The notes below the pieces were generated by a model. The model searched no databases. It was not told where the DNA came from and saw only the letters and a program-made list of their open reading frames with translations. Shown one piece after another: positions 4,673 to 61,230 of a DNA stretch of 64,000 bases (positions are counted from its first letter, which is position 1; each line of letters starts with the position of its first letter). Origin of the DNA: an uncultured Candidatus Saccharibacteria bacterium (GTDB taxonomy: Bacteria > Patescibacteriota > Doudnabacteria > UBA920); assembly GCA_964490395.1 (NCBI GenBank), contig CAZBAS010000006.1, positions 8,081 through 72,080 of the forward strand, given 5' to 3'. A program made the translations under genes and the position numbers.

Positions 4673-4722
4673 AGAATCTAGAATTAAGAATTATGAATCA
4701 AGAATATAGTAGTAAGAATATG
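4673..4722. repeat. heptanucleotide tandem repeat (AGAATYA)x7 in a 5' leader
   Basis: agaatct agaattA agaattA tgaatca agaatat agtagta agaatat lies immediately 5' of the start of the oxidoreductase gene. Confidence 0.5.
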
Positions 4723-7454: not shown

Positions 7455-7535
7455 ATATAAAAGCGGAATTTAGAATGGCGAATGTAGAATAAAGAGTGTA
7501 GCAGATTAGAAGAGGGTAGCCCCTTTTGATTATCT

Positions 7536-12915: not shown

Positions 12916-13057
12916 GTTAAACAAGTTGGGTGCATTCGAATGATGCCATCCCTGGCGTTAGTCGATTACTCCTGACTTGAACTTAGTAATAGCACATACA
13001 TGATTGGCCTGTTTGCGCAGCCAGTCCTGTCTTTGCGTATGGAAAGGAATTACCAGC

Positions 13058-13618
13058 ATGGTAAAGAAACCAGAACCACAGTCCAAGTTCGAATTGGCTG
13101 CAGTAAAGTTTACTAATTGGGTTGGGTCTACGTCTTCGCTTGTCGTCCATACCTTAGCTTTTATAGCCAGTTTTATATTGGTTATATTTGGCGTGGCGTT
13201 AGATAAAGTACTCCTTGTACTTACGACCGCAGTGTCGCTGGAGGCAATTTATCTTGCTATATTCATTCAAATGACAGTGAACCGCAACACTGCAAGTTTG
13301 GAAGAAGTGGAAGAAGACATAGATGAAATCCAAAAAGACATTGATGAAGTCCAGGAAGACGTGGGCGAAATTGCCGAAGATGTAGGAGAAATTGAAAAAG
13401 ACGTTGATGAAATTCAGGCGGACATTGATGAAGTGCAAAAAGATATAGACGAAGTGCAAAAAGACGTTGACGAAATTCAAGAAGACGTAGAAGACATTAC
13501 AGAAGGCGAAACTGCAGAAGAGCTAGCCGACCGCAAAACTCGCGAGTCCTTAGATAACATAGAAGGCACCCTCGCAAGGCTCATAGAAGAAATAGAAAAA
13601 ATAAAAGCGCAGAAATAA
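13058..13618 (+). CDS. DUF1003 family membrane protein with C-terminal heptad-repeat coiled coil
   Basis: Has two TM helices and the SLEAIYLAIFIQMTVNRN motif characteristic of DUF1003/COG4420. The ATG at 13058 follows AAAGGA. The C-terminus is an acidic 7-residue repeat array. Confidence 0.7.
   Translation: MVKKPEPQSKFELAAVKFTNWVGSTSSLVVHTLAFIASFILVIFGVALDKVLLVLTTAVSLEAIYLAIFIQMTVNRNTASLEEVEEDIDEIQKDIDEVQEDVGEIAEDVGEIEKDVDEIQADIDEVQKDIDEVQKDVDEIQEDVEDITEGETAEELADRKTRESLDNIEGTLARLIEEIEKIKAQK
13301..13512 (+). repeat. about ten imperfect 21 bp tandem repeats inside the DUF1003 gene, encoding the heptads (D/G)E(I/V)(Q/E)(K/E)D(I/V)
   Basis: gatgaa(a/g)t(c/g)ca(a/g)aaagac(a/g)t(t/a) recurs head-to-tail. 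The protein repeat reads DIDEVQK / DVDEIQE. Confidence 0.7.
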
Positions 13619-13648
13619 GTAGTCAGTAGTAAGTTGTCTGTTGTAAGT

Positions 13649-13685
13649 AAAGCACTCTTTGCGTAGGCAAAGAGTGCTTTTATAT
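13649..13685. terminator. bidirectional intrinsic terminator (AAAGCACTCTTTGC-gtag-GCAAAGAGTGCTTT + TAT)
   Basis: Perfect 14 bp stem between convergent genes. Confidence 0.65.
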
Positions 13686-13724
13686 ACTGACTACTGATAA
13701 CTTACTACTGACAGCCTGTTCGGA

Positions 13725-15934: not shown

Positions 15935-16024
15935 ACTAATATACGAATGCCACGCGAATGTCACGAATAATACCGGAAGAATTTACTTAATTCGTAATTC
16001 TTGATTCTTAATTCTATTCTTACA
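15935..16024. repeat. heptanucleotide repeat tract (CGAATG/GAATTAA/GAATCAA units) in a 5' leader
   Basis: acgaatg-cacgcgaatg-tcacgaata ... cttaattcgtaattcttgattcttaattctattcttac. This is the same unit family seen at 4673, 52245, 61143 and inside metG. Confidence 0.45.
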
Positions 16025-18489: not shown

Positions 18490-18501
18490 AATCATGTAAA
18501 C

Positions 18502-20289
18502 ATGAAAACATTTAAACATATAAACAAAAAATACTTAGTGGTAAGCGCGCTTGTAATTGCAGGCGCGCTTTTGGTGTGGAGTTTTTATTGGGTTGGGGTG
18601 TTTTCCGGTTCCCCTCCTAAGGTAGGAGGGGCTAGGGGTGGTATGAAAGAAAATGCTACCGTAATCCATCCTGCCACGGTCATGCAACCGGATCTGTACC
18701 CAACTTTGAATAAAGTGGATGAGATCCCTGCTGCTACTGAGAAAGTCTACGGCGGTATAGTATCCCACCATTTCTACATGGAAGAGGATATAGGGAAGCT
18801 GTTTTTACAGTTACGCCAGCAGAATCCATCTGTGGTGGTAATAGTGGGTCCGAACCATTTTAATGCAGGCAATGCAGACATACAAACTTCTACTGCTTCG
18901 TATACTACTCCCTTTGGTCAGCTCGATGGCGATCTGCCGCTCGTTAGTCGCTTGGTCGCAGACGGCGCTGCAACTCATGAGGAGCTCGCTTTTGAGCGCG
19001 AACATTCCATAGGGGCACTTGTTGGTTTTACAAAGAAAGTATTTCCAAATGCTAAATTACTTCCCATTATCATGCGTCGCAACGCAAGTCCTGGCCGTAC
19101 GGAACAACTTGCAGCTGAGCTTGAAAAAATACTTCCCCAAGATGCGCTCGTCCTGGCGAGTGTAGATTTTTCGCATCACTTGGATAGGTTTGCAGCTGGC
19201 TTCCACGATAGCCAGTCAGTGGCTGCGTTGCTTTCTGCGGACTTCAACCGCATTCGCAGTCTAGAAGTAGATAGTCCGCAGAGTTTAGAAGTGCTTATGC
19301 GCTACCTGGAGAGCCGGGGAGCACTGCATATGGAATATAAAAATACGAACCAGGCAGTGTATGGCGGTAACTTGATGTCCGATGACGTAACCAGCTATGT
19401 GTTCGCGAAATTTACGTCTTCTTCCAGCCCTCCCCCTCAAGAGGGGTCTCCCTCCTCTTCCTCCCCTAATATAGGGCCCGCTACGCCGGAGCGTAAGCGA
19501 GGCGAGGAGGCTAGGAGGGGTATAATTTCGAACATCGTACCACCCCTAACCCCTCCTATCCTAGGAGGGGGAAAAGACACAGCCACCCTCCTACATCTTG
19601 GGATATTCAATGCAGGCATGCTTGAATCTAACGAAGGCAAGGCCCTCTACGCACTTGGTGGCCCAGAAAATAATTTCCTCCGCGGCGGAGATTTAAAAGT
19701 TATTGGTACGAATAATAAAACAAGTTGTAACTCAGCGCGCATTCCAGCACTTGAGCGCTATAAGATCAATGTATTCAACTCACAGTCATGCGCAAATACC
19801 TTTGTGTTTGGCTCAGAAAATAGAAATTATAATGTAGGTTTTATTTCTATAGCTCAAGGTGAAAACGTAAGCAAAGCAGTAGCTATCCAAAAAAAGAATT
19901 ACGCTTACGTGGCTGTTCAGGTTCCCGCTAGTGCCGAAGCCCAAAGTGCCATCGATTACGGCGCAGATGCAGTCTTTATTCAAGACGGTGCAGCAAAAGT
20001 TGAACTATACAAAAACAAACCCATCATTCATCACCCGGCATCAAATACATCAGGTTTCAGTACTGGCGTAGTATTTAATCCAGCAGGTGCATCAAATATC
20101 GCAGAAGCTTCCTCTGATTCCTCCCCTAAAATAGGGGAGGCTAGGTGGGGTATAAAACTGTACACCTTCCCATACCAACTAAAAAACAATCAACTCACCC
20201 GCCTCGATATTTCTGCAAGACTAAAATCCTGTAAACAAATTTTAACCGGACTAAAAAATGTAGATGGTTGCTCTGCAAGTATCCAGTAA
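18502..20289 (+). CDS. membrane-anchored MEMO1-family (AmmeMemoRadiSam protein B-like) domain fused to a C-terminal domain of uncertain (possibly CapA/metallophosphatase-like) affinity
   Basis: Shows the N-terminal TM helix and the Memo-like motifs VIVGPNHF, TPFG, EHSIGA and SVDFSHH. The C-terminal segment AIDYGADAVFIQDG...LYKNKPIIH is CapA-like. The ORF is interrupted in-frame by three GC-rich palindromic elements. Confidence 0.6.
   Translation: MKTFKHINKKYLVVSALVIAGALLVWSFYWVGVFSGSPPKVGGARGGMKENATVIHPATVMQPDLYPTLNKVDEIPAATEKVYGGIVSHHFYMEEDIGKLFLQLRQQNPSVVVIVGPNHFNAGNADIQTSTASYTTPFGQLDGDLPLVSRLVADGAATHEELAFEREHSIGALVGFTKKVFPNAKLLPIIMRRNASPGRTEQLAAELEKILPQDALVLASVDFSHHLDRFAAGFHDSQSVAALLSADFNRIRSLEVDSPQSLEVLMRYLESRGALHMEYKNTNQAVYGGNLMSDDVTSYVFAKFTSSSSPPPQEGSPSSSSPNIGPATPERKRGEEARRGIISNIVPPLTPPILGGGKDTATLLHLGIFNAGMLESNEGKALYALGGPENNFLRGGDLKVIGTNNKTSCNSARIPALERYKINVFNSQSCANTFVFGSENRNYNVGFISIAQGENVSKAVAIQKKNYAYVAVQVPASAEAQSAIDYGADAVFIQDGAAKVELYKNKPIIHHPASNTSGFSTGVVFNPAGASNIAEASSDSSPKIGEARWGIKLYTFPYQLKNNQLTRLDISARLKSCKQILTGLKNVDGCSASIQ
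18607..18645. repeat. GC-rich palindromic element, short version, in-frame in CDS (encodes SGSPPKVGGARGGM)
   Basis: ggttCCCCTCCtaaggtaGGAGGGGctaggggtggtatg. Confidence 0.7.
19425..19572. repeat. composite GC-rich palindromic element cluster in-frame in CDS (CCCCCTCAAGAGGGG hairpin, then the long-version element, then a CCCCTCCTA-tcc-TAGGAGGGG hairpin)
   Basis: ccctccccctcaagaggggtctccc ... cctcccctaatatagggcccgctacgccggagcgtaagcgaggcgaggaggctaggaggggtat ... cccctcctatcctaggagggg. It encodes SSSPPPQEGSPSSSSPNIGPATPERKRGEEARRGI...PPILGGG. Confidence 0.7.
20119..20155. repeat. GC-rich palindromic element, short version, in-frame in CDS (encodes SDSSPKIGEARWGI)
   Basis: tCCTCCCCTAaaaTAGGGGAGGctaggtggggtataaa. 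Confidence 0.7.
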
Positions 20290-23294: not shown

Positions 23295-23415
23295 AGTACA
23301 ATTTTCAATTTTTAATTTTACAATTTTTAATGAATTAGCAAATATCTAAACATTGAAGTTTTAAAATGGTAAATTGGAGATTTTAAATTGATTGAAAATT
23401 GTAAAATTGAAAATT

Positions 23416-25880: not shown

Positions 25881-26633
25881 ATGCAAGGCTGCTATACTAC
25901 ATATATGACGCACTCAGTGACTATAGTTATTCCAACTTTGAACGAAGTCCATACTGTCCCGTCTTTGCTCGCAGACTTACGTGAGCAGACGCAACTGCCT
26001 GAGGAAATAATTCTCATAGACAGCGGGTCAAAAGATGGCACCGCAGAAATGGTAAAGAAGCAGTTTCCAGAAGTGCGCGTATTCCTGCACGACAAAGAGC
26101 CAGCATACAAGCGCAACATGGGCGGCTACTTGGCAAAAAGTGAAATCACCATTTTTTTAGACGCAGATACTAGACTAAAGCCAAAGTTCATAGAAAAAGT
26201 TGTCCGTGAGATGAGCCGCCGCAAGCTTGATATTGCATGCCCGTGGTATGTTCCGCACAAATCTACCGTGGTAATTCATGGTATTTACGGTCTCTTTAAT
26301 AGTATGTTTTACCTACTGCAAAAAATTCTGGCGAGCGGTGCGGGGAGTTGTGTTGTGGTACGGAGTTCGGTATTCCAAAAGAGTCGTGGTTACGACACAT
26401 CACTTAAATTTGATGATATAGAATTTATTCGCCGCATGTCATGGCGGCATTCATTTGGCATACTCCATACCACGGTGGGGGTGTCGGACCGCCGATTTAA
26501 AAAGCACGGCGCGCTACGGATGGGCCTTATGTATATGGTGCTCAGTGTGTTTTTTACCCTTGGTGCATTTCGGGCGGCAAATGTCATTAGTTACGAATTT
26601 GGTAGGTATGGCCACAACAGAAGAACAACTTAA
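25881..26633 (+). CDS. GT2-family glycosyltransferase (possibly a carotenoid glycosyltransferase, judged from its context)
   Basis: Has VIPTLNE...IILIDSGSKDGT...FLDADT, the GT-A fold with the DxD motif. Confidence 0.7.
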   Translation: MQGCYTTYMTHSVTIVIPTLNEVHTVPSLLADLREQTQLPEEIILIDSGSKDGTAEMVKKQFPEVRVFLHDKEPAYKRNMGGYLAKSEITIFLDADTRLKPKFIEKVVREMSRRKLDIACPWYVPHKSTVVIHGIYGLFNSMFYLLQKILASGAGSCVVVRSSVFQKSRGYDTSLKFDDIEFIRRMSWRHSFGILHTTVGVSDRRFKKHGALRMGLMYMVLSVFFTLGAFRAANVISYEFGRYGHNRRTT

Positions 26634-27210
26634 ACAAATACGTGACGAGGTCTGGGATTTGAAACAGTCTCCACTCTATACCTACCGCACAGAGAACAAA
26701 TATTACCCTGTGCTCGGAGAGGGTGGCCATACTGCGCGCGTAGTGTTTGTGGGCGAGGCTCCTGGAGAAAATGAAGCAAAAACCGGAAGACCATTTGCGG
26801 GCGCTGCGGGGAAAGTGTTGGATCAGCTACTGGCATCCATTAACTTAAAACGAGAAGATGTATACATTGCCAACTTGGTTAAGGATAGGCCTCCGGGGAA
26901 TCGAGACCCACAGCCTGAAGAGATAGAGCTGTATGGTCCGTTTCTTATAAGGCAACTTGAAGCAATACAACCAAAGGTAGTTGCTACGCTTGGACGGCAT
27001 TCGCTCCAGTATTTGTTGCAGTACTTTGGCGCACCCGAGTTTGGGCAAACCATAACAAAGCTTCATGGTAGGGTAATACCGGTAAAAGCATCCTACGGGC
27101 CTCTGACTCTTGTCCCGCTGTATCACCCTGCGGCTGCGCTTTACAACCCCAACCTTCGCGCAGTACAACTCGAAGATATAAAAGTTTTGTCTGGTATACT
27201 AAAGGGGTAA
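26608..27210 (+). CDS. uracil-DNA glycosylase, family 4
   Basis: Has the GEAPGENE motif, GRPFAGAAGKVL, and the HPAA(A)LYNP C-terminal motif typical of family 4 UDG. The start is set at MATTEEQ. Confidence 0.75.
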   Translation: MATTEEQLKQIRDEVWDLKQSPLYTYRTENKYYPVLGEGGHTARVVFVGEAPGENEAKTGRPFAGAAGKVLDQLLASINLKREDVYIANLVKDRPPGNRDPQPEEIELYGPFLIRQLEAIQPKVVATLGRHSLQYLLQYFGAPEFGQTITKLHGRVIPVKASYGPLTLVPLYHPAAALYNPNLRAVQLEDIKVLSGILKG

Positions 27211-27312
27211 TGACAAAAATGAACAAAAGTAAATAAAAATGACAGAAATATAAAACACAACTCTGAACAATTTTTGTCACTTTTGTCATTTTTTTAAATT
27301 TTGTCACTAAAC
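27211..27312. repeat. about 100 bp intergenic repeat element, copy 1 (termini AATGACAAAAATGA ... TCATTTTTGTCA; three TTTTGTCA direct repeats)
   Basis: The 5' end (22 nt) and the 3' end (37 nt, tttttgtcacttttgtcatttttttaaattttgtca) are near-identical to the copy at 59122..59228. It lies between UDG and dedA. Confidence 0.6.
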
Positions 27313-27314
27313 TT

Positions 27315-27938
27315 ATGCTTATAGACGTTCCACACTTAGTTAAGACTGCTGGGTACATTGGAGTTTTTGCTATTATTTTTGCTGAGACCGGCTTGTTTAT
27401 TGGTTTCTTCCTACCAGGAGACAGTCTTTTATTTACTGCCGGTATTTTAGCCTCTCAAGGGTATCTGAATGTAACCTGGCTCTGCATTGGATTGTTTATT
27501 GCAGTGTTCTGTGGCGACAATGTTGGTTACCTTATTGGCAAACATGCTGGCCCAAAGTTTTTCACAAGGCCAAAGTCTTTACTGTTTAATCCTGAACACT
27601 TAAAACGCAGTCATGATTTTTTTGAAAAGCACGGCGGCAAAGCAGTTATTATTGCTCGGTTCGTGCCAGTTGTGCGCACATTTAGTCCAGTAGTATCGGG
27701 TCTCGCTCGCATGCGATACGTAAAGTTTATGGTGTACAGCACCATAGGATCGCTCCTTTGGGCAGTGGGATTGACGCTTCTTGGCTACTGGCTGGGTCAA
27801 ACCGTGCCCAACGTAGAAAAATATATTATTCCTGGTGTTGTTATAATTATTTTGCTATCTATAAGTCCTGGTATATATCATGTACTTAAGACCAAAGAAA
27901 GCAGGGCGTCTTTCTTTTCTATATTCAAAAAAAAGTAA
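27315..27938 (+). CDS. DedA-family (SNARE-associated/TVP38) membrane protein
   Basis: Has GYIGVFAIIFAETGLFIGFFLPGDSLLFTAG, the DedA signature. Confidence 0.8.
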   Translation: MLIDVPHLVKTAGYIGVFAIIFAETGLFIGFFLPGDSLLFTAGILASQGYLNVTWLCIGLFIAVFCGDNVGYLIGKHAGPKFFTRPKSLLFNPEHLKRSHDFFEKHGGKAVIIARFVPVVRTFSPVVSGLARMRYVKFMVYSTIGSLLWAVGLTLLGYWLGQTVPNVEKYIIPGVVIIILLSISPGIYHVLKTKESRASFFSIFKKK

Positions 27939-27961: not shown

Positions 27962-29470
27962 ATGGTTCATCCTTCACGCGTAAGAAAATTGAACACAGCT
28001 GAAAGTGGTACGGAAGGTCCGGTTGTATATTGGATGAGCCGAGACCAGCGCGTGGCTCACAATGCAGCGCTGGCTTACGCAGCACAACTCGCCCGCGAAT
28101 ATAATCAGCCACTCATGGTGGTTTTTTGCCTACGCAAAAAATTTGCCCACGGAACAGAGCGCCTTATAGATTTCATGCTCACAGGCCTAGAGGAAGTGGA
28201 AGCAGACCTCGTAAAGAAAGATATCCCATTTTACTTTTTGCTCGGAAGGCCGGAAATAGAAATTCCAAAATTTATACACGAGCATAGTGTTTCTGCTTTG
28301 GTTTCAGATTTTTCTCCGCTGAAGACTAATCGTCAGTGGAAAGAGCATGTATCCGAAAGAATCAAAATTCCATTGTATGAAGTGGACGCCCACAATATAG
28401 TGCCGTGCTGGGCTGCAAGTCCTAAGCAAGAATTTGGCGCATATACCATTCGCCCAAAAATACATAGGCTCCTTTCTGAATATCTGCAAGATTTTCCAAG
28501 ATGGAATTATACCCCACCTAACCTCCCCTATATTAGGGGAGGAAAGAATGCCGATAGTGGATCCATTGATGCAGACGCCTCCTCCGGTACCCCTCCTAAG
28601 ATAGGACCCGCTACGCTGGAGCATAAGCGAGGCGAGGGAGCTAGGGGTGGTATGGATTGGAGCCACATTCGATCCCAAATAGAAGTAGATACTTCTGTGC
28701 CAAAAGTGGACTGGATTGTGCCAGGGGAAAAAGCAGCACATAAAATGGTAAAACATTTTATTGCCCATAAATTAAAAACCTATAACGAAAATAGAAACGA
28801 CCCCACTAAGGATGTTCAGTCCAATCTTTCTCCCTATCTTCATTTCGGCCACATATCGAGCGAGCAAGTAGTCTTAGAGGTTCTCAATGCCACAGGCCTC
28901 AGTCTTGCCGAAGTGCTAGAAAAACATACTGCAAGCACAGAGCCACTTAAGCTATCGGCCACATCGTTTATTGAAGAGCTTGTAGTGCGCAAAGAACTTT
29001 CCGATAATTTTTGTTTCTACAATAAATTTTACGATTCAACAAAGGGGTTTCCTGCGTGGGCGCTAAAAACTCTGAATGAACATCGCGGTGATGTGAGAGA
29101 ATACACATATACGCTCAAGCAGTTAGAAGAGGCGAGCACGCACGATGACCTATGGAATGCTGCGCAATTGGAAATGGTTAAGCGGGGTAAAATGCACGGC
29201 TACATGCGCATGTACTGGGCCAAGAAAATATTTGAATGGAGCAAAACACCAGAGAAGGCCGTAGAGCATGCTATATACTTGAACGACAAATATTTTTTGG
29301 ACGGACGTGATCCAAACGGTTATACAGGCATAGCCTGGTCCGTTGGTGGCGTGCACGACCGCGCGTGGTTTGAGCGGTCTATATTTGGTAAAATTCGCTA
29401 CATGTCTTACGGCGGCGCGAAAAGTAAATTTAAAATTGCTGAATATATACAAAAGATCAATGCACTATAG
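27962..29470 (+). CDS. phr: deoxyribodipyrimidine photolyase, class II CPD photolyase
   Basis: The N-terminus VVYWMSRDQRVAHNAAL and the C-terminus GYTGIAWSVGGVHDRAWFERSIFGKIRYMSYGG are class II photolyase signatures. It contains an in-frame insertion of GC-rich palindromic elements. Confidence 0.85.
   Translation: MVHPSRVRKLNTAESGTEGPVVYWMSRDQRVAHNAALAYAAQLAREYNQPLMVVFCLRKKFAHGTERLIDFMLTGLEEVEADLVKKDIPFYFLLGRPEIEIPKFIHEHSVSALVSDFSPLKTNRQWKEHVSERIKIPLYEVDAHNIVPCWAASPKQEFGAYTIRPKIHRLLSEYLQDFPRWNYTPPNLPYIRGGKNADSGSIDADASSGTPPKIGPATLEHKRGEGARGGMDWSHIRSQIEVDTSVPKVDWIVPGEKAAHKMVKHFIAHKLKTYNENRNDPTKDVQSNLSPYLHFGHISSEQVVLEVLNATGLSLAEVLEKHTASTEPLKLSATSFIEELVVRKELSDNFCFYNKFYDSTKGFPAWALKTLNEHRGDVREYTYTLKQLEEASTHDDLWNAAQLEMVKRGKMHGYMRMYWAKKIFEWSKTPEKAVEHAIYLNDKYFLDGRDPNGYTGIAWSVGGVHDRAWFERSIFGKIRYMSYGGAKSKFKIAEYIQKINAL
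28521..28655. repeat. GC-rich palindromic elements in-frame in the photolyase gene (CCTCCCCTA-tat-TAGGGGAGG hairpin plus the long-version element)
   Basis: acCTCCCCTAtatTAGGGGAGGaaag ... ccCCTCCtaagataGGAcccgctacgctggagcataagcgaggcgagggagctaggggtggtatg. It encodes ...SGTPPKIGPATLEHKRGEGARGGM. Confidence 0.7.
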
Positions 29471-36774: not shown

Positions 36775-36822
36775 GACTCGTCCCTAGATATAAGTAATTA
36801 TATTTAGAGACGAGTTTTTTGT
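36775..36822 (+). terminator. intrinsic terminator (ACTCGTC ... GACGAGT stem with a 26 nt loop, followed by T6)
   Basis: gACTCGTCcctagatataagtaattatatttagaGACGAGTtttttgtatttt. It would terminate a short upstream transcript (a 49 aa ORF or an ncRNA). Confidence 0.5.
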
Positions 36823-36831
36823 ATTTTCTTG

Positions 36832-36923
36832 TCCCCCTCCTAAGATAGGAGGGGCTAGGGGTGGTATGAGTCATTCGTAATAAATTTCGTACCCCATCTG
36901 ACTTCCCCTATCTTAGGGGAAGG
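36832..36923. repeat. intergenic copies of the GC-rich palindromic element (a complete short version plus an inverted partial copy)
   Basis: tCCCCCTCCtaagataGGAGGGGctaggggtggtatg (near-identical to the in-gene copy at 18607) and cTTCCCCTAtctTAGGGGAAgg. Neither lies in a coding region. Confidence 0.7.
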
Positions 36924-36963
36924 ACAGGACAAACATATGTGCTATTAATAATCGTATATATCT

Positions 36964-38366: not shown

Positions 38367-38453
38367 TAAGCAAAATACAACGTTTTCCGCGTTCACGCTA
38401 ATCGTGACCCAAGCAACGCTTAGCGTTGCGGCCACGGAAAACGTTGTATTATA
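38367..38453. repeat. structured palindromic element (16 bp outer stem AATACAACGTTTTCCG / CGGAAAACGTTGTATT enclosing two small hairpins)
   Basis: aatacaacgttttccgcgttCACGctaatCGTGacccaagcAACGCttaGCGTTgcggccacggaaaacgttgtatt. It lies between glyQS and the downstream CYTH gene. Confidence 0.5.
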
Positions 38454-38492
38454 TAAGTTCCCCCTGTGGATATATCTAGCAGATTAAAACAT

Positions 38493-41386: not shown

Positions 41387-42250
41387 ATGGATATAAAAAT
41401 TGGTTGTCATGTTTCTATTGCGGGAGGAATATTTAATGCACCAAAGAATGCGGCGGATTTGGGGTGTGAGACATTTCAAATTTTTAGCCGGAGTCCACAT
41501 GGGGGACCAGTAGCAGCGCTGACCCCAGAAATTGTAGAGCAGTTTAAGTCAGAAATGGCCAAGTACAAACTGAAAGAGTTTGTTATTCATGCTCCGTATA
41601 TACTGAACTTTGGCTCGGCTAAACCCAGTACTTTTCATGGGTCAATAGCCATTGTTCGCGGCGAGCTGGACCGAGGGAGTCTCCTTGGCGCGAGCTACGT
41701 TATGTTCCATCCTGGGAGCTTTAAAGACCTGGGTGAAGAAGCAGGCATGAAGCAGGCCCAGGAAGGCCTCTTGAAGGTCCTAGACGGCTATACAGGCTCT
41801 ACAAAGCTGCTCATAGAAATATCTGCCGGGGCAGGACAGGTAATAGGCGATACGTTTGAAGAATTGGAAGAGCTTATGAAGCCGCTCAAAAAACATAAGG
41901 GTTTTGGTGGTATTTGCTACGACACCCAGCACGCTTTTGCTTCGGGCTATGACATTCGCACAAAAAAAGACGCGGCCGCAACCTTTAAAAAGTTTGATGC
42001 AGTCATTGGCCTAAAAAACCTACACATGAGCCATGTAAATGACAGCAAACCAGAATTTGCTTCACACAAAGACAGACACGAGCATATAGGCGAGGGGAAT
42101 ATTGGTTTAGAAGGTTTTAAAGCTTTTTTGGGTGAACTCAAAAAGCACTACGCAAAAACCAAAGGAGTATTCCCACTTATTTTAGAAACCGAACACGACA
42201 AGGTGCAAGAAGACATTAATACTATGAAAAAACTGAGGGATGCAGCATAG
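41387..42250 (+). CDS. nfo: endonuclease IV (AP endonuclease family 2)
   Basis: Matches the Nfo TIM-barrel family along its whole length. Histidine clusters in HAPYILN and MFHPGS fit Nfo zinc-site residues. Confidence 0.85.
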   Translation: MDIKIGCHVSIAGGIFNAPKNAADLGCETFQIFSRSPHGGPVAALTPEIVEQFKSEMAKYKLKEFVIHAPYILNFGSAKPSTFHGSIAIVRGELDRGSLLGASYVMFHPGSFKDLGEEAGMKQAQEGLLKVLDGYTGSTKLLIEISAGAGQVIGDTFEELEELMKPLKKHKGFGGICYDTQHAFASGYDIRTKKDAAATFKKFDAVIGLKNLHMSHVNDSKPEFASHKDRHEHIGEGNIGLEGFKAFLGELKKHYAKTKGVFPLILETEHDKVQEDINTMKKLRDAA

Positions 42251-42398
42251 GTGTTATGTTGCTTATGGGCCATATGCTAATTCTAAAAAGTCAAACAGAT
42301 TGTAGGGCTGCGTTAGGCACTCTGATTGACAAAATAATTTTGTCTTAACCTAAACGTCTAAAATTAACTTTGATTATAAATAAAACAAAAAATACATC

Positions 42399-42427: not shown

Positions 42428-42674
42428 CTATACACAGAGTTAAAATTCAGAACTAAGAAACAAACGAATTATGGAGAAAGGTATAGGCTCTAGAGAAAAT
42501 TTTCAAGCAGAATTTTCTGCCCCACACTCAGTCGAAGTGAGTGAGATGAAAACGTCAGAACTTATTGAATTGGTCAATGGAGTTAGGGCAATCCACGAGC
42601 TCAAAGAGCGGATGGGTAATAGAGAAAGCGCCGTTTAGGCGTCGAACGGAAGCGATAGTGTATAATAAATACAT

Positions 42675-42914
42675 ATGAACGAACAGGAACTACAGAGCGT
42701 GATAGATCTTATTTTGGCTTCCGCATTAGACCAAACCATAAAAGATATATTGATACGCGATCTAAAAACAGAAGGACTTACGGATTTTCTCCGTGAGCAG
42801 ATTATTGCTTATTGCGATGATGCATTACAAAAATTGGATGCTAAAGCAGAGGCAGCTAAAAAAGTGCTTGAAGAGCGGGGTGTTGATTATAATTCAGCGA
42901 CTACTGCTGCTTAG
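42675..42914 (+). CDS. small hypothetical protein (79 aa, helical)
   Basis: The ORF is followed immediately by a perfect intrinsic terminator. No family recognised. Confidence 0.4.
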   Translation: MNEQELQSVIDLILASALDQTIKDILIRDLKTEGLTDFLREQIIAYCDDALQKLDAKAEAAKKVLEERGVDYNSATTAA

Positions 42915-42945
42915 AAAACCGGCTTAGTAGCCGGTTTTTTCTTTT
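42915..42945 (+). terminator. intrinsic terminator AAAACCGGCT-tagt-AGCCGGTTTTTT
   Basis: Perfect GC-rich stem with a T6 tail. Confidence 0.75.
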
Positions 42946-42962
42946 GAGCGTATACTACAACT

Positions 42963-43988
42963 ATGAAATTTTCTGAACTCGAATACTCTACAAAAGTCAT
43001 ATTAAAGGTTGTGTTTGTTGTTTTGGCCTTGGCATTTATATGGGCTATCCGCGAAGTTATAGCCGTTTTTTTGCTAGCGGTTGTTTTGGCCTCCGCTTTG
43101 GACCCTTTGGCAGACTATCTAAGCAAACGAAAAATTCCTCGCGCTGTGAGTGTACTTGCGGTGTACGTGATTGTTTTTGGTATTGTGGGTCTGGTGCTGG
43201 CGACCATTGCCCCGTCGCTTGCTACTCAGTTCCATTTACTTAGCAGTAATTTTCCGGAGTATCTCAGCGAACTCCATGCGCGCTATCCAAGCTTCGCAAG
43301 CATTCTACCTGGGTCCAGCCTTGGTGAAATAGTAAGCGGTGTGCTTACGGGTAATGGCGGCGGTTCTGTGTTTACCCGCACGTTGGGCGTATTTAATGGG
43401 CTCCTAGGTTTTGTTACTGTGCTCGTTGTTTCTTTTTACTTAGTTGCTTCTCAGCAAAAGGGTATGAAAGAGCTTATTCGTTCCGTAGTCCCTGCTGGCC
43501 AACGAGAAATGACTATGGGCTTGGTGGAGAAAATCCAACGCAAAATGGGTTTGTGGGTGCTTGGACAAATTATTTTAAGCATTGCTATTTTCATACTTAC
43601 CTTTGTGGGGCTAACCGTGCTGAATGTTAAATATGCGTTGGTGCTCGCGCTCATGGCTGGCCTCTTAGAAGTGGTGCCGTATATTGGTCCCATTGTTTCA
43701 GCAGTTCCTGCACTGTTTTTTGCGCTCATACAAAGTCCTGCGCTTGGTGTGGGGGTGATAGTGTTGTATATAATTATTCAAAAAACCGAAGGCTATGTAC
43801 TTGTCCCGAAGATAATGCACAAGACTGTAGGCGTTTCGCCTTTGGTTGTTATACTCGCCCTCCTTACCGGGTTTAAACTCGCAGGCATAGTGGGTTTACT
43901 CCTTGCAGTGCCTATTGCCGCTGCCGCTACAGTGCTTATAGACGAGTTTTCTGGCGGGCCTTCCGAGCCGAAGTCCGCTCCGTTGTAG
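42963..43988 (+). CDS. AI-2E family transporter (PerM/UPF0118)
   Basis: Has an 8-TM profile and conserved segments typical of AI-2E/UPF0118 permeases. Confidence 0.75.
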   Translation: MKFSELEYSTKVILKVVFVVLALAFIWAIREVIAVFLLAVVLASALDPLADYLSKRKIPRAVSVLAVYVIVFGIVGLVLATIAPSLATQFHLLSSNFPEYLSELHARYPSFASILPGSSLGEIVSGVLTGNGGGSVFTRTLGVFNGLLGFVTVLVVSFYLVASQQKGMKELIRSVVPAGQREMTMGLVEKIQRKMGLWVLGQIILSIAIFILTFVGLTVLNVKYALVLALMAGLLEVVPYIGPIVSAVPALFFALIQSPALGVGVIVLYIIIQKTEGYVLVPKIMHKTVGVSPLVVILALLTGFKLAGIVGLLLAVPIAAAATVLIDEFSGGPSEPKSAPL

Positions 43989-44045: not shown

Positions 44046-45524
44046 ATGTCTAAACCATTTTACATTACGACTACACTTCCATATGTAAACGCGAAACCCC
44101 ACATGGGTCACGCGCTGGAGTTTGTGTATGCCGATATTTTAGCTCGGTATCATAAGCTGTTGGGCGATGAAATATACTTCAACACTGGTACTGACGAACA
44201 TGGTTTGAAGATATATCAGAAGGCTATTGAAGAAGGTAAGGGGCCCCAAGCTTACGTAGATGAGTACGCAGCAAAGTTTAAGTCTCTACTGCCTCGTTTG
44301 GGAGTATCCGACGATATACATTTTATACGAACAACAGATGCCAATCATAAATCTGCTGCGCAAGAGTTTTGGAAGCGGTGCTTGGCGAATGATGATATAT
44401 ATAAAAAGATATATAAAGTTAAATACTGCGTTGGGTGTGAGCTAGAAAAAACAGATTCAGACCTTGTTGATGGATTCTGCCCATTGCACCCCGGAAAAGA
44501 GTTAGAGCTCATAGAAGAAGAAAACTATTTCTTTAAATTTTCGAAGTATCAGCAACCCTTGCTCGATTTGTACGATACAGCGAACCATGACTTTGTGGTG
44601 CCAAAAACACGTCTGCATGAGATACGCGAATTCGTATCAGCAGGTCTTAAAGACTTTAGCATATCGAGGCTCGCAACTAAGATGCCTTGGGGAATACCGG
44701 TGCCTGGCGACGAATCACAAGTCATGTATGTGTGGTTTGATGCACTCATTAATTACATTTCTACATTGGGCTGGCCAAGTACTTCCGAGCAGTTTGAAAA
44801 ATTTTGGGGAACAATTGATGCGCCAAACGGAATACAAATTGCAGGTAAAGACAACCTCCGCCAGCAGTCCGCAATGTGGCAGGCAATGCTTATGAGCGCG
44901 GGTCTTCCAAACTCTAAACAAATCTTAATCCACGGGTTCATCACGAGCGGCGGCCAGAAGATGTCTAAGAGTATTGGAAACGTCGTAGATCCATTTGATG
45001 TAATAGATAAGTTAATAGAAAAAGGTGTGGCAGAAGCTCAGGCAATTGACGCGCTTAGGTATTGGTTTGCGCGTGAGATGCCGACCTTTGAAGACGGTGA
45101 TTTTACTTGGGAACGTTTCGTAGAAAACTATACTGCTAATCTTGCAAATGGTTTGGGGAATTTGACGAGCCGTATTTTAAAAATGGCGGTGAATGCAGGA
45201 ATTACGAATTACGAATTACGAATTACGAATTTCAATTCTGAGTATGGAACCTGTCTAAACCAGTATGAAATACAGAAAGTAACAGACTGGGTGTGGGAAA
45301 AAATTAAAGCCGCAGATGAGTTCATAGCTAAAGAAGAACCATTCAAGAAAGTTAAAGTTGACCTTGAGGCAGGCAAGAAAGATATACAGTATTTACTTGG
45401 CCAGCTGGAGCTTGTTGCATATCACACGCAGCCATTGTTACCAGACTCATCACAAAAAATATTGGCAGCGTTACAAAACATAACTCTTGAAACTATTCCA
45501 CGGCTGTTTCCAAGGATTGCATAA
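44046..45524 (+). CDS. metG: methionine--tRNA ligase (short form)
   Basis: Has the HIGH-type motif PHMGHAL, the KMSKS motif, and a Cys knuckle CVGCELEKTDSDLVDGFCPLH. An in-frame heptamer-repeat insertion lies in the anticodon-binding region. Confidence 0.8.
   Translation: MSKPFYITTTLPYVNAKPHMGHALEFVYADILARYHKLLGDEIYFNTGTDEHGLKIYQKAIEEGKGPQAYVDEYAAKFKSLLPRLGVSDDIHFIRTTDANHKSAAQEFWKRCLANDDIYKKIYKVKYCVGCELEKTDSDLVDGFCPLHPGKELELIEEENYFFKFSKYQQPLLDLYDTANHDFVVPKTRLHEIREFVSAGLKDFSISRLATKMPWGIPVPGDESQVMYVWFDALINYISTLGWPSTSEQFEKFWGTIDAPNGIQIAGKDNLRQQSAMWQAMLMSAGLPNSKQILIHGFITSGGQKMSKSIGNVVDPFDVIDKLIEKGVAEAQAIDALRYWFAREMPTFEDGDFTWERFVENYTANLANGLGNLTSRILKMAVNAGITNYELRITNFNSEYGTCLNQYEIQKVTDWVWEKIKAADEFIAKEEPFKKVKVDLEAGKKDIQYLLGQLELVAYHTQPLLPDSSQKILAALQNITLETIPRLFPRIA
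45198..45239 (+). repeat. six tandem heptanucleotide units (CGAATTA)x6 = 42 nt, in-frame inside metG
   Basis: ggaatta cgaatta cgaatta cgaatta cgaattt caattct. It encodes GITNYELRITNFNS. This is the same unit family as the intergenic tracts. Confidence 0.7.
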
Positions 45525-52244: not shown

Positions 52245-52275
52245 TGATTCGTAATTCTTCATTCTTGATTCTGTC
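52245..52275. repeat. heptanucleotide repeat tract (TGATTCG TAATTCT TCATTCT TGATTCT) in a 5' leader
   Basis: Lies immediately upstream of the ATG at 52281. Unit family GAATYAM (shown here as its reverse complement). Confidence 0.45.
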
Positions 52276-58111: not shown

Positions 58112-58219
58112 CTCACACTAACTTTTGGTCTATCGGGATATCGTATACCGGTAGTACGCGCCCATGGGGTGGGCGTAGACTGGGTTCAATTCCCAGTATC
58201 CCGACCAAAAGTTAGTGTG
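58112..58219. repeat. 17 bp perfect inverted repeats (CACACTAACTTTTGGTC / GACCAAAAGTTAGTGTG) bracketing tRNA-Pro
   Basis: The left arm ends 5 nt before the tRNA 5' end. The right arm overlaps the tRNA 3' GACCA. Together they would form an extended precursor stem. Confidence 0.6.
58134..58207 (+). tRNA. tRNA-Pro (anticodon GGG)
   Basis: CGGGATATCGTATACCGGTAGTACGCGCCCATGGGGTGGGCGTAGACTGGGTTCAATTCCCAGTATCCCGACCA. The anticodon stem is CGCCC/GGGCG with loop AUGGGGU, and CCA is encoded. Confidence 0.85.
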
Positions 58220-58387: not shown

Positions 58388-59125
58388 ATGGAACCAACCA
58401 AATTAGTATATTTAGAAGACATGCATACGCTGACTGGCGATGCAGGTGTGGTAGAAGTAGGGGAGATGGAAGGCAGGCAGTACATAGTGCTTGACCAAAC
58501 TATTTTGTATGCGCAAGGGGGTGGCCAGCCTGCAGACCATGGGGTTATAAAAAATGATGCTTCAGTTTTCATGGTAACGGATGTACGTTTCAAGGATGGT
58601 ATTGTCTATCACTATGGCGAACGGGAGGGTGCTCCATTATCCGTTGGTGATAAAGTAGTTATAGAAGTGGATGGCGAGCGAAGGCAGTTGCACAGGCGGT
58701 TGCATTCTGCTGCGCACGTGCTAGACATGGTAGTGGCAGAAATGAATCTACCCTGGGTACCTGGTAAAGGGTATCATTTTCCCGATGGTCCCTATGTAGA
58801 ATACGCCGGGTCGCTGGACGGCTTGAACATAGAAGAGCTAAAAGAAAAAATGGAGAAAAGAATACATGAGATAATTGCTTCGGATCTTCCGACGCGTACT
58901 GTGTTTGTGAGTAAAGATGAAATGGCACAGCTCTGCAGATTTGTACCAGAACACTTGCCCGAGGGGAAACCAACACGCGTAGTTCTGTATGGCCAGTTTG
59001 GTGTGCCGTGCGGGGGTACGCATGTGGCGCATTTAAGCGAAATAGGCTCTGAAGCTATACGTAAGATAAAAGTGGAAAAAGGCAACGTTAGAGTAAGCTA
59101 TACTATAGATACCAATGCTCAATGA
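58388..59125 (+). CDS. AlaX-type alanyl-tRNA editing protein (tRNA synthetase second additional domain)
   Basis: Has the HxxxH motif (HSAAHVL) and CGGTHV zinc-binding motifs of AlaX/ThrRS editing domains. Confidence 0.7.
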   Translation: MEPTKLVYLEDMHTLTGDAGVVEVGEMEGRQYIVLDQTILYAQGGGQPADHGVIKNDASVFMVTDVRFKDGIVYHYGEREGAPLSVGDKVVIEVDGERRQLHRRLHSAAHVLDMVVAEMNLPWVPGKGYHFPDGPYVEYAGSLDGLNIEELKEKMEKRIHEIIASDLPTRTVFVSKDEMAQLCRFVPEHLPEGKPTRVVLYGQFGVPCGGTHVAHLSEIGSEAIRKIKVEKGNVRVSYTIDTNAQ

Positions 59126-59228
59126 CAAAAATGAGCAAAATTGAACAAAGGTGAAAAAATTAAAATATATTCGGTTTTCATTTTTGTCACTTTTGTCATT
59201 TTTTTAAATTTTGTCAATCTAAAATAAA
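59122..59228. repeat. about 100 bp intergenic repeat element, copy 2 (the same termini and TTTTGTCA triple repeat as 27211..27312)
   Basis: aatgacaaaaatgagcaaaa ... tcatttttgtcacttttgtcatttttttaaattttgtca. It sits between the AlaX-like gene and the next gene. Confidence 0.6.
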
Positions 59229-60050
59229 ATGAAATACGTTAAAGCACTGATAGTTTTTATTGGCATTGTATGGCTGGCTACTGCGCCTATTGCTATGCAT
59301 GCACGACCTGGTAGTATTTTGCATAGGGTAAATAGTATTGTAAACGAGCCTGTATGGGCCTGGATTCACATTACCCAAGATGGCCGGGCCGATACCGTGG
59401 AAAAACAGCTCGAGCAGCGGTATACAGACATAGAACATGCCTGGAATAGCAAAGAGGCGTGGCAAGAGCCGTGGGCGTATAAAGCTGAAGATGCCACTGC
59501 GGGAAGAGTAATTGCGCAAATACATAGCGCCATAGCGGCTCAGGACTTTAAGGTAGCGGACACGCTGACTGCACATGCCCTTGCCCTGTCCCGCGGACAT
59601 AAACAAGTTATGCTTGGCTTAATTACTAAGCCTGGCATAGGGAAAACTGCGGCAGATGTTACCTTTATGGATACGCGCATAAACGCACTTACCGAGCTCC
59701 GCCAGAGTATTGCCCAGAAATTTGCTACGGCATACAGTAGAACGGAACTGGTAAAAGGTATAGATGATAAACTTATACAACTAGATACCTACGTCGCCAC
59801 TGCAGATACTGACTTCCAAGTTGCGGACGCGGTAGTAGGGGATACAGAACGGCTGGCCATACAGAACACTCTCAAATACGCTAAAACATTGCAGGCCGCG
59901 GCAAAAGACAAGCTCGCCAATGACCAGTATGTAGATGCCTACCGCTATGCAAACGATGCAGAGGGCTATGCGAAAGAGGTTTCTATAGTAGTAACAGCCG
60001 CACAAGAGTTTTCCATCCACACTCCCACCAGTTTCCTTCCTGTGCAATAG
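59229..60050 (+). CDS. hypothetical secreted protein
   Basis: Has an N-terminal signal/TM segment (ALIVFIGIVWLATAPIAMHA). No family recognised. Confidence 0.5.
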   Translation: MKYVKALIVFIGIVWLATAPIAMHARPGSILHRVNSIVNEPVWAWIHITQDGRADTVEKQLEQRYTDIEHAWNSKEAWQEPWAYKAEDATAGRVIAQIHSAIAAQDFKVADTLTAHALALSRGHKQVMLGLITKPGIGKTAADVTFMDTRINALTELRQSIAQKFATAYSRTELVKGIDDKLIQLDTYVATADTDFQVADAVVGDTERLAIQNTLKYAKTLQAAAKDKLANDQYVDAYRYANDAEGYAKEVSIVVTAAQEFSIHTPTSFLPVQ

Positions 60051-61147
60051 TGGTAGCGACAGGAGCCAAACGCATGCAGATACAACCAGAAGACTACAAT
60101 TTTGAGTTTCCCGACTCTCTTATTGCCCAAAGCCCTGCGCATCCTCGTGATAGTGCGCGGCTTTTGGTTTACGACAGAAAAACCAGCACAGTTGCATTGG
60201 ATATATTTAAAAATCTGGTACAGTACCTACCTCCCCGCGCAGTTATTGTATTTAATGAAACCAAAGTTATTCCGGCGCGTTTCTATGCGTATAAGCCCAC
60301 TGGCGGTAAGGTGGAGTTGCTATATACAGGTAAATCGGAAAAAACTTTTGACGCCCTTGCAAATAGATCGCTAGTAGTCGGTGATGTACTTTGTTTTCGA
60401 TCCGGTTCCTCCCCTAAGATAGGGGAGGCTAGGAGGGGCATGAACCAAGAGCACGATATTACCGTTACGAAAAAACTATCCAAAGGATACCGTTTTACAT
60501 CGTCATTCCCCATTTCTCAGTTATTCTCTATTCTCGACAGGCACGGTGTTACACCTATACCGCCGTACATAAAAAATAATACATTTGCGGAAAAGAAACT
60601 TCGCACAGAGTATCAGACTGTGTTTGCGAAGTCGCAAGGCTCAAGCGCAGCACCAACTGCGAGTCTACACTTTACGAAAAACCTTCTGGCGAAATTTGAG
60701 AAAGCGGGAATAGCTACCGAGTATGTAACATTGCATGTGGGGCTCGGCACCTTCGCACCGCTCACGGAGAAACATCTGAAAACCAAAAAACTTCATAGCG
60801 AGTACTATGAAATTACGCCATCTGTTGCAAAGCGGCTGGAGCGCTATAAAAAACAGGGCAGGCCAATAGTTGCTGTGGGGACGACCGTGGTCCGTACACT
60901 CGAGTCCGCTGCTTCGCGTGCGGGAAAGCTTGGTAAGCTTTCCGGAAAAACTGAAATATTTATTTACCCGCCGTATAATTTTAAATTTGTAGACAGCCTC
61001 ATTACCAACTTTCATGTACCCAAGTCCAGCCTTATGATGCTGGTAGCAAGTTTAATTGGTCGTGAAAAGCTGCTTGAGTTGTACGTCTTGGCGGTAAAAA
61101 AGAAGTTTAGGCTGTTTTCGTTTGGTGATGGCATGCTCATAAGATAG
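60050..61147 (+). CDS. queA: S-adenosylmethionine:tRNA ribosyltransferase-isomerase
   Basis: Has QSPAHPRDSARLLVYDRKT at the N-terminus and conserved QueA motifs throughout. One GC-rich palindromic element is inserted in-frame. Confidence 0.85.
   Translation: MVATGAKRMQIQPEDYNFEFPDSLIAQSPAHPRDSARLLVYDRKTSTVALDIFKNLVQYLPPRAVIVFNETKVIPARFYAYKPTGGKVELLYTGKSEKTFDALANRSLVVGDVLCFRSGSSPKIGEARRGMNQEHDITVTKKLSKGYRFTSSFPISQLFSILDRHGVTPIPPYIKNNTFAEKKLRTEYQTVFAKSQGSSAAPTASLHFTKNLLAKFEKAGIATEYVTLHVGLGTFAPLTEKHLKTKKLHSEYYEITPSVAKRLERYKKQGRPIVAVGTTVVRTLESAASRAGKLGKLSGKTEIFIYPPYNFKFVDSLITNFHVPKSSLMMLVASLIGREKLLELYVLAVKKKFRLFSFGDGMLIR
60407..60443. repeat. GC-rich palindromic element, short version, in-frame in queA (encodes SSPKIGEARRGM)
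   Basis: tCCTCCCCTAagaTAGGGGAGGctaggaggggcatg. Confidence 0.7.
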
Positions 61148-61178
61148 GATCAAGAATTAAGAATCACGAATTGGGTAC
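61143..61178. repeat. heptanucleotide repeat tract (GGATCAA GAATTAA GAATCAC GAATTGG) followed by a degenerate GC-rich palindrome
   Basis: Lies directly after the queA stop. It is followed by gggtacccccgggttCCCCTCCCCaggcGGGGGGAGagg (61178..61225). Confidence 0.45.
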
Positions 61179-61230
61179 CCCCGGGTTCCCCTCCCCAGGC
61201 GGGGGGAGAGGCCAGGAGAGAGGTTGAATC

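Follow-up and report, generated by a model that had tools for sequence, protein, structure and literature searches.

The window analysed here, by which we mean the whole 64-kb stretch of DNA, has a GC content of 45%, and its proteins are 55-72% identical to, and syntenic with, those of uncultured Candidatus Saccharibacteria contigs (L019, L073 and L074). Two look-alike intergenic spacers had been noticed in it, and both are real, at 27211-27306 and 59123-59216. The first lies between a UDG-family gene (26455-27210), whose TAA stop codon (27208-27210, + strand) directly abuts it, and a VTT/DedA gene (27315-27938). Copy 1 opens with an A-rich arm (27211-27248, +) of the units TGACAAAAA, TGAACAAAAG, TAAATAAAAA and TGACAGAAA, passes through a variable centre (27249-27271, +) that forms the loop of a predicted hairpin, and closes with a T-rich arm (27272-27306, +) of the units TTTTGTCAC, TTTTGTCAT, TTTTTTAAA and TTTTGTCA, of which the A-rich arm is a degenerate inverted version. 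An 8-nt spacer, ctaaactt (27307-27314, +), leads from the T-rich arm to the VTT/DedA ATG, a distance typical of the family described below. In copy 2, the A-rich arm (59123-59160, +) carries the units TGACAAAAA, TGAGCAAAAT, TGAACAAAGG and TGAAAAAAT, and the upstream AlaX-like ORF (58388-59125) continues into the element and terminates at its first TGA (59123-59125). The variable centre (59161-59181, +) holds a degenerate extra unit, GGTTTTCAT (59173-59181), and the T-rich arm (59182-59216, +) is identical to that of copy 1. The 12-nt spacer atctaaaataaa (59217-59228, +) precedes the ATG of a 273-aa signal-peptide-like ORF (59229-60050), which is followed by queA.

The comparison of the two copies bore out much of the original prediction and refined the rest. 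The shared 3′ block ATTTTTGTCACTTTTGTCATTTTTTTAAATTTTGTCA is 37/37 identical (27270-27306 versus 59180-59216) and the centres differ, as had been stated. The 5′ blocks share AATGACAAAAATGA[A/G]CAAAA, at 27209 and 59121, and are 78% identical over 45 nt. Where three direct repeats had been counted, the T-rich arm is in fact composed of four 9-bp units, the third of which is relaxed (TTTTTTAAA). The copies had also been said to end 4-12 nt before a gene; measured from the T-rich arm, the distance is 8 nt to the dedA ATG (27315) and 12 nt to the ATG at 59229. A segmental duplication was ruled out, since the flanking genes are unrelated: UDG and VTT-DedA-photolyase around copy 1, AlaX-like and the 273-aa ORF (no Pfam family) with QueA around copy 2. 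The perfect 17-bp palindrome GACAAAATAATTTTGTC, previously placed at 42324, was located at 42328-42344 (no strand assigned), 78 nt after the stop codon of ORF 41387-42250, with one half-site per arm, and it may be a vestigial or minimal relative of the element or a weak hairpin.

The unit TTTTGTCA is strongly concentrated in these two spacers, where 8 of its 11 occurrences in the window fall; 3.7 occurrences were expected, and a count of 11 was reached by 0 of 100 shuffles. The double unit, allowing ≤3 mismatches, gave 8 matches in the window versus 0.41 expected, and a scan with the arm consensus (≥24/35 matches) recovered just these two loci in the 64 kb. At the gathering score, Rfam 15 reported only tRNAs in the window, and no credible match to the element was obtained at E ≤ 1. 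A tRNA-Pro (GGG) was detected at 58134-58207 by ARAGORN and was not reported by the Rfam tRNA model at the gathering score.

Several other repeats were also observed in the window. A second repeat family consists of a GC-rich palindromic unit of ~45-100 nt (CCCCTCCTAAGATAGGAGGGGCTAGGGGTGGTATGA) that is present in both orientations, with copies at 18598-18646, 19451-19577, 20107-20155, 28507-28544, 28577-28679, 36821-36929, 60395-60444 and 61184-61206, several of them inside long ORFs. The photolyase ORF has, at the site of its copies, an in-frame insertion of ~29-36 aa (about nt 28515-28640) which L094 and L095 do not have in their orthologues (466 aa versus 502 aa), an arrangement that resembles the in-frame Rickettsia palindromic elements. 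A Y1_Tnp gene (IS200/IS605- or RAYT-like) was found at L095:4595-5194, directly downstream of the photolyase gene and beside a phage-type integrase, and may be related to the GC-rich palindromic repeats. Many other spacers consist of short tandem arrays with a period of 7-8 nt (AGAATCT, GAATTAC, TAAGTAG, CAATTTT and others), located at 4673-4719, 7466-7501, 13616-13649 / 13685-13712, 15986-16015, 18493-18526, 23299-23331 / 23391-23415, 45199-45231, 52254-52272 and 61146-61171, the array at 45199-45231 apparently lying inside ORF 44046-45524. Often these arrays form inverted pairs that abut stop or start codons in the manner of the 9-mer element, and they have the appearance of additional families of this type of junction element. 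In addition, ORF 13004-13618 contains a 21-nt tandem repeat at 13299-13529 (about 9-11 copies, 60-79% identical) whose translation is an acidic heptad-like repeat; L019 and L074 have homologues of this ORF with 39-41% identity.

Further copies had been predicted, and a pattern scan of one genome per species with the 24-base pattern TTTTGTCANTTTTGTCAN{8,12}TTTTGTCA found the same element in many Patescibacteria genomes. The scan returned 85 loci, which were reduced to ~70 instances once (TTTTGTCAN)n microsatellites had been removed. Nearly all of these instances belong to MAGs of Doudnabacteria, Saccharibacteria and other Patescibacteria, with 2-9 exact matches per genome and additional degenerate arms within the same 8-kb loci. 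The pattern matches outside Patescibacteria include (TTTTGTCAN)n microsatellites, and in the viral contigs scanned such microsatellites were all that was found, the element itself being absent. The architecture of the family is that of two inverted arms, each of about four 9-bp TTTTGTCAN units, around a variable centre, with the consensus arm TTTTGTCA-A-TTTTGTCA-T-TTtTTTAA-T-TTTTGTCA. The third unit is relaxed across the family (TTTTTTTAA, TTTATTTAA, ATTATGTCA, TTTCCGTCG), and the ninth base of each unit is lineage-specific, in every copy and in both arms alike. Wherever two arms are in close proximity, the A-rich arm always comes before the T-rich arm. Loop lengths range from ~15 to 130 nt, and some loops enclose a nested GC-rich hairpin repeat. 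This hairpin repeat, GTCCCGAACGAAGCGAGGGATCCCTCGCTTCGTTCGGGAC, was observed in six Doudnabacteria and other Patescibacteria loci (L018, L028, L056, L078, L082 and L090), either nested within a 9-mer element's loop or directly ahead of a solo T-rich arm, which suggests that one element has inserted into another. Within the library searched, literature searches on the motif, on Patescibacteria promoters and on conserved intergenic repeats found no description of the element.

The placement of the element between genes is very regular. A total of 54 of the ~70 instances lie between co-directional genes, and along the direction of transcription the order is upstream stop codon, A-rich arm, loop, T-rich arm, ~8 nt and next start codon. 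Measured from the upstream stop codon, the A-rich arm is found at -13 to +7 nt in most instances, while the distance from the T-rich arm to a same-strand start codon (n = 25) is 8 nt in 18 instances, 9 nt in five, 6 nt in one and 12 nt in one. About half of the family instances are solo arms, with 13 T-rich arms ahead of a start codon and 14 A-rich arms behind a stop codon, and some apparent solo arms are full elements with the GC-rich hairpin repeat nested in their loop. The downstream genes are functionally unrelated and encode MreC, MreD, GlmS, SerS, GltX, RadA, a formyltransferase, an ABC-2 permease and PilC. The same gene is preceded by the element in different MAGs in the case of serS, glmS, mreC, mreD, pilC and the ABC-2 permease gene. 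Same-gene coincidences numbered ~6 against roughly 1.5 expected, the expectation being a rough estimate and several of the coincidences coming from related MAGs, and this positional conservation was not taken as proof of a regulon. In L075, one element lies upstream of mreC and another upstream of mreD within an operon-like gene string, and the arms upstream of mreC in L072 and L075 are 35/35 identical. The T-arms are conserved at least as strongly as the adjacent coding sequence.

Turnover was observed at orthologous junctions. At the UDG-dedA junction the element is present in L093 (86% DedA identity) and absent in L094-L096 (75-76%); in L095 and L096, dedA lacks the element and is preceded by a TATAAT-like box, 5 nt from the ATG, and the junctions of L094 and L096 carry arrays of a different unit (TTACTAAT / ATACTAAT). 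The alaX-orf273 junction lacks the element in L131, L132 and L133 (84%, 82% and 75% identity, respectively), L131 having another heptamer array there. Conversely, the window spacers orthologous to the elements of L073 and L019 are empty. Relative to copy 1, the orthologous arm of L093 has one substitution and a 2-nt deletion, whereas the T-arms of copies 1 and 2 are identical at 37/37 positions, which points to recent copying or gene conversion within the genome. It is these presence/absence patterns and the copy identity, and only these sequence comparisons, that suggest the element to be mobile.

Longer members of the family contain a gene. In L068, L069 and, in degraded form, L062, the arms are ~375 bp apart and enclose an ORF of 122-123 aa that matches PF05635 23S_rRNA_IVP (E 7.7e-12) and the TIGR02436 four-helix-bundle protein (E 4.2e-17). 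In this cassette the A-rich arm stops 2 nt ahead of the IVP ATG, the IVP TAA abuts the T-rich arm, and from the T-rich arm it is 8-9 nt to the next gene. When metagenomes were scanned with the IVP protein, 27 loci were obtained, among which the relatives L104-L107 (64-72% identical) have TGACAAAA-type arms as well. The IVP cassettes occupy at least five different junctions, namely PilB/PilC, HisS-like/HIT, LysM/unknown and two others. Distant IVP homologues (32-54% identical) are enclosed by inverted arms made of other short repeat units, and the unit varies with the IVP clade, examples being the 10-mers GATTGAMCAR and the 7-8-mers GTACAAAT/TACAAAG. Among full-length IVP genes from diverse bacteria, 13 of 17 have reverse-complementary flanks (z 3-18). 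IVP genes of unrelated bacteria (L109-L123, L012:3093-3458 and L024:838-1206) were observed between protein-coding genes, flanked by inverted clade-specific arrays of 7-10-nt repeats. At L012, a Saccharibacteria locus, the arms of the IVP gene are of the AATTTCC type, and 1 kb from it there is a cargo-less element of the TGACAAAA type. Neither window copy, nor any other part of the 64-kb window, contains the IVP gene. The window copies are members of a family of palindromic junction elements that extends across Patescibacteria and can carry an IVP gene, and if a protein that recognises the TGACA unit exists, the IVP protein is the obvious candidate.

The original prediction had also considered a promoter or operator module, with light or stress regulation conceivable for the copy ahead of dedA and photolyase. 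Across the family the downstream genes share no function, which argues against a photolyase-linked regulon, and a light or stress operator was discarded because element-less dedA orthologues (L094 and L095) still have a photolyase gene downstream. The promoter reading was likewise not sustained, as no sigma-70-like promoter is common to both copies: a search for -35/-10 hexamers at 16-18 bp spacing gave no match on the + strand of copy 1 and only weak 9/12 matches in copy 2, without a counterpart in copy 1. Sigma-70, Bacteroidetes-type TTTG/TAnnTTTG and leaderless -10 box models were rejected for want of consistent hexamers, and the 'TA' of a promoter would have to come from the third unit, which is variable. 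The PhoB/WalR boxes (TGTCA or TGTWAH), the DnaA 9-mer and the sites of CtsR and IHF were rejected, as the half-sites appear only loosely similar and the 9-bp period does not fit. A mini-ORF, in which the 9-bp period would be three codons (FCH/FCQ), was excluded as well, since neither window copy has an in-frame start codon, the FCH frame is broken in several family members and a conserved stop codon is missing.

Most of the window genes lack a Shine-Dalgarno sequence. At several such genes a TATAAT-like box was observed 6-8 nt before the start codon, namely TATAAT-8-ATG at 42675, TATACT-6-ATG at 42963 and TATAAG-8-GTG at 38466 (window positions 42651-42674, 42945-42962 and 38449-38465, respectively), an indication that this genome makes frequent use of leaderless mRNAs. 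In folding predictions, both window copies form long imperfect hairpins on either strand (z -3.6 to -5.1 versus shuffles), with sense-orientation z values of -3.6 and -4.1, and 35 family members fold similarly. A strand-specific RNA structure was rejected, the sense and antisense folds differing by a mean of -0.25 kcal/mol with 72 versus 62 G·U pairs, and this lack of asymmetry leaves selection on a transcribed RNA stem unproven. No terminator was predicted inside the element, whereas canonical GC-stem terminators are present elsewhere in the window.

Taken together, we consider that the two window spacers are probably cargo-less (MITE-like) copies of an IVS-like palindromic mobile element family of Patescibacteria. 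The MITE-like architecture originally proposed holds with respect to the inverted termini, the variable centre, the multiple copies, the presence that differs at orthologous junctions and the longer versions with a cargo gene, but it fails with respect to target-site duplication and a transposase partner. No duplication was detected at either window copy (GGGTAA before and CTAAAC after copy 1, GCTCAA before and ATCTAA after copy 2) or in the family consensus and alignments, and no mobility gene of any other kind was found with the element. A classical MITE, that is a deletion derivative of a DDE-transposase IS mobilised in trans via terminal inverted repeats, is therefore very improbable: the several copies per genome with inverted termini, a variable centre and presence differing among relatives would suit it, as would the multiple subterminal repeats, which resemble transposase-binding arrays, but no inspected junction has a target-site duplication, no transposase gene lies between or beside the arms in ~440 kb of element-bearing loci (the sole cargo being the IVP gene), a near-identical arm is kept across different Patescibacteria lineages, and a fixed distance to the start codon is unexpected for DDE insertion. 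It is scarcely more probable that the element is a stand-alone, non-mobile RNA, such as an intercistronic termination/re-initiation hairpin, a terminator or a small RNA selected for its structure. The absence of strand asymmetry and of a consistent pairing register, the commonness of solo arms, the lack of an Rfam family match and the placement of the canonical GC-stem terminators elsewhere in the window, with none predicted inside the element, all oppose such an RNA, even though the predicted stem is stable and has the stop and start codons at its base, the window genes are mostly without Shine-Dalgarno sequences and elements occur inside operon-like strings, for example upstream of mreC and mreD in L075.

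Unlikely, yet of more weight than either of these, is a cis-regulatory DNA module in which the 9-bp arrays are operators through which a DNA-binding protein conserved among Patescibacteria, perhaps the four-helix-bundle IVP protein acting in trans, controls downstream transcription or translation. An invariant TTTTGTCA across classes with lineage-specific ninth bases is what a co-evolving binding protein would give, and the very tight 8-nt distance to the ATG, the solo T-arms kept ahead of genes, the covariation of arm sequence with IVP clade, the recurrence of the element ahead of the same genes in different MAGs and a T-arm conservation that equals or exceeds that of neighbouring coding sequence (35/35 in L072/L075) would all be in keeping with it. 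However, there is no functional theme among the downstream genes, solo arms face the 3′ end of an upstream gene (14) as often as a start codon (13), no sigma-70-type promoter is shared, and the orthologous junctions of close relatives lack the element. A 9-bp period would moreover put successive sites on different helix faces, unlike the known response-regulator boxes.

The closest known systems are the intervening sequences (IVSs) of 23S rRNA and, after them, co-transcribed MITEs such as Correia and ERIC. In published IVSs, terminal inverted repeats form a stem, an S23p ORF lies in the loop, RNase III cuts the transcript, and a mobile origin is suspected and unproven (PMC4990558). The element resembles the IVSs of Leptospira, Coxiella and Salmonella (PMC4990558) in its terminal inverted repeats and long stem, in having both ORF-bearing and ORF-less versions, in its patchy phylogenetic distribution and in a mobile origin long suspected with no transposase known. 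The IVS loop may hold a PF05635 gene, the same cargo as in the elements of L062, L068, L069 and L104-L107. Unlike IVSs, which reside in helix 25 or 45 of 23S rRNA, both window copies lie between protein-coding genes, and the Rfam scan found no rRNA in the window; the arms of the element are arrays of 9-bp tandem units, it is held tightly against stop and start codons, and it has many cargo-less and solo-arm copies. IVSs are excised by RNase III, and a comparable processing of the element is suggested by analogy only.

The Neisseria Correia, enterobacterial ERIC/IRU and pneumococcal RUP elements likewise have a length of ~100 bp and inverted termini around a variable centre; they are scattered over intergenic sites and are probably transcribed along with the adjacent genes. 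In the case of Correia, the stems are substrates of RNase III. In contrast, the arm studied here is conserved across different Patescibacteria lineages rather than within one genus, and the element stands at a fixed distance from the start codon, has no TA or other target duplication and has no known IS partner. Mycobacterial interspersed repetitive units (MIRUs) also occupy the intercistronic spacers of operons, and they extend from the stop codon of one flanking gene to the start codon of the other, but they are direct tandem repeats with small coupled ORFs, and a mini-ORF was rejected for the element. The TIGR arrays of TIGR-Tas systems (10.64898/2026.09.09.750476; PMC12045711) were compared with the element in view of the same phylum, their stem-loop variants and their ~36-nt unit with internal periodicity. 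They were rejected as an identity for it, as the element consists of one inverted pair whose units are invariant, with neither variable spacers nor box C/D motifs, and its T-rich arm has no GA dinucleotide. TIGR arrays adjoin a tas (Nop-domain) gene, around which the element does not appear to be clustered, and the verdict was drawn from the arm architecture.

A mechanism can be outlined for the favoured reading of a cargo-less, IVS-like mobile element. The element would be transcribed within the intercistronic RNA of the neighbouring genes; we infer this since the 8 nt to the ATG leave no room for a start-proximal -10 box, such as the TATAAT-like one of the element-less dedA orthologues in L095 and L096, and no shared promoter or terminator is predicted. 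Once transcribed, it would form a long A·U stem that, by analogy with the 23S rRNA IVSs, is likely tolerated with the flanking genes unharmed; RNase III might cut this stem, and the arms may be recognised by the IVP protein. A hairpin is impossible for the solo arms, which make up about half of the family. The solo arms, the rigid 8-nt spacing, the invariance of the unit across classes and the concerted changes within lineages would equally fit a protein-binding site, and a conserved regulatory site would also predict the placement ahead of the same genes in different MAGs. Functional constraint would account better than a purely selfish element for so tight an 8-nt spacing and for a TTTTGTCA that hardly varies across distant classes. 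In addition, Patescibacteria genomes are tiny and tightly packed, so that a ~100-bp junction element conserved across their classes is unlikely to be neutral.

A broader proposal, which we put forward as speculation and hold to be doubtful as a whole, is that the IVS proteins (Avd-like) and the flanking tandem-repeat arms form one previously unrecognised class of genetic element, in which the protein recognises its own 7-10-nt arrays as DNA or RNA. As part of the same doubtful proposal, the class would have spread to gene junctions as well as rRNA genes, its cargo-less copies would be bound in trans, and operons would be punctuated by RNA processing, translational coupling or repression. If true, it would give the IVS ORF a function and explain how IVSs move.

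The link to the IVP gene means that IVS-like stem-loops also reside between protein-coding genes, and, as the arm repeats change with the protein clade, both the role of the IVS ORF and the spread of IVSs become testable. For the annotation of Patescibacteria genomes, the arms account for several peculiarities: they supply stop codons and remove the space for start-proximal promoters, and they are not to be mistaken for promoters or regulons.
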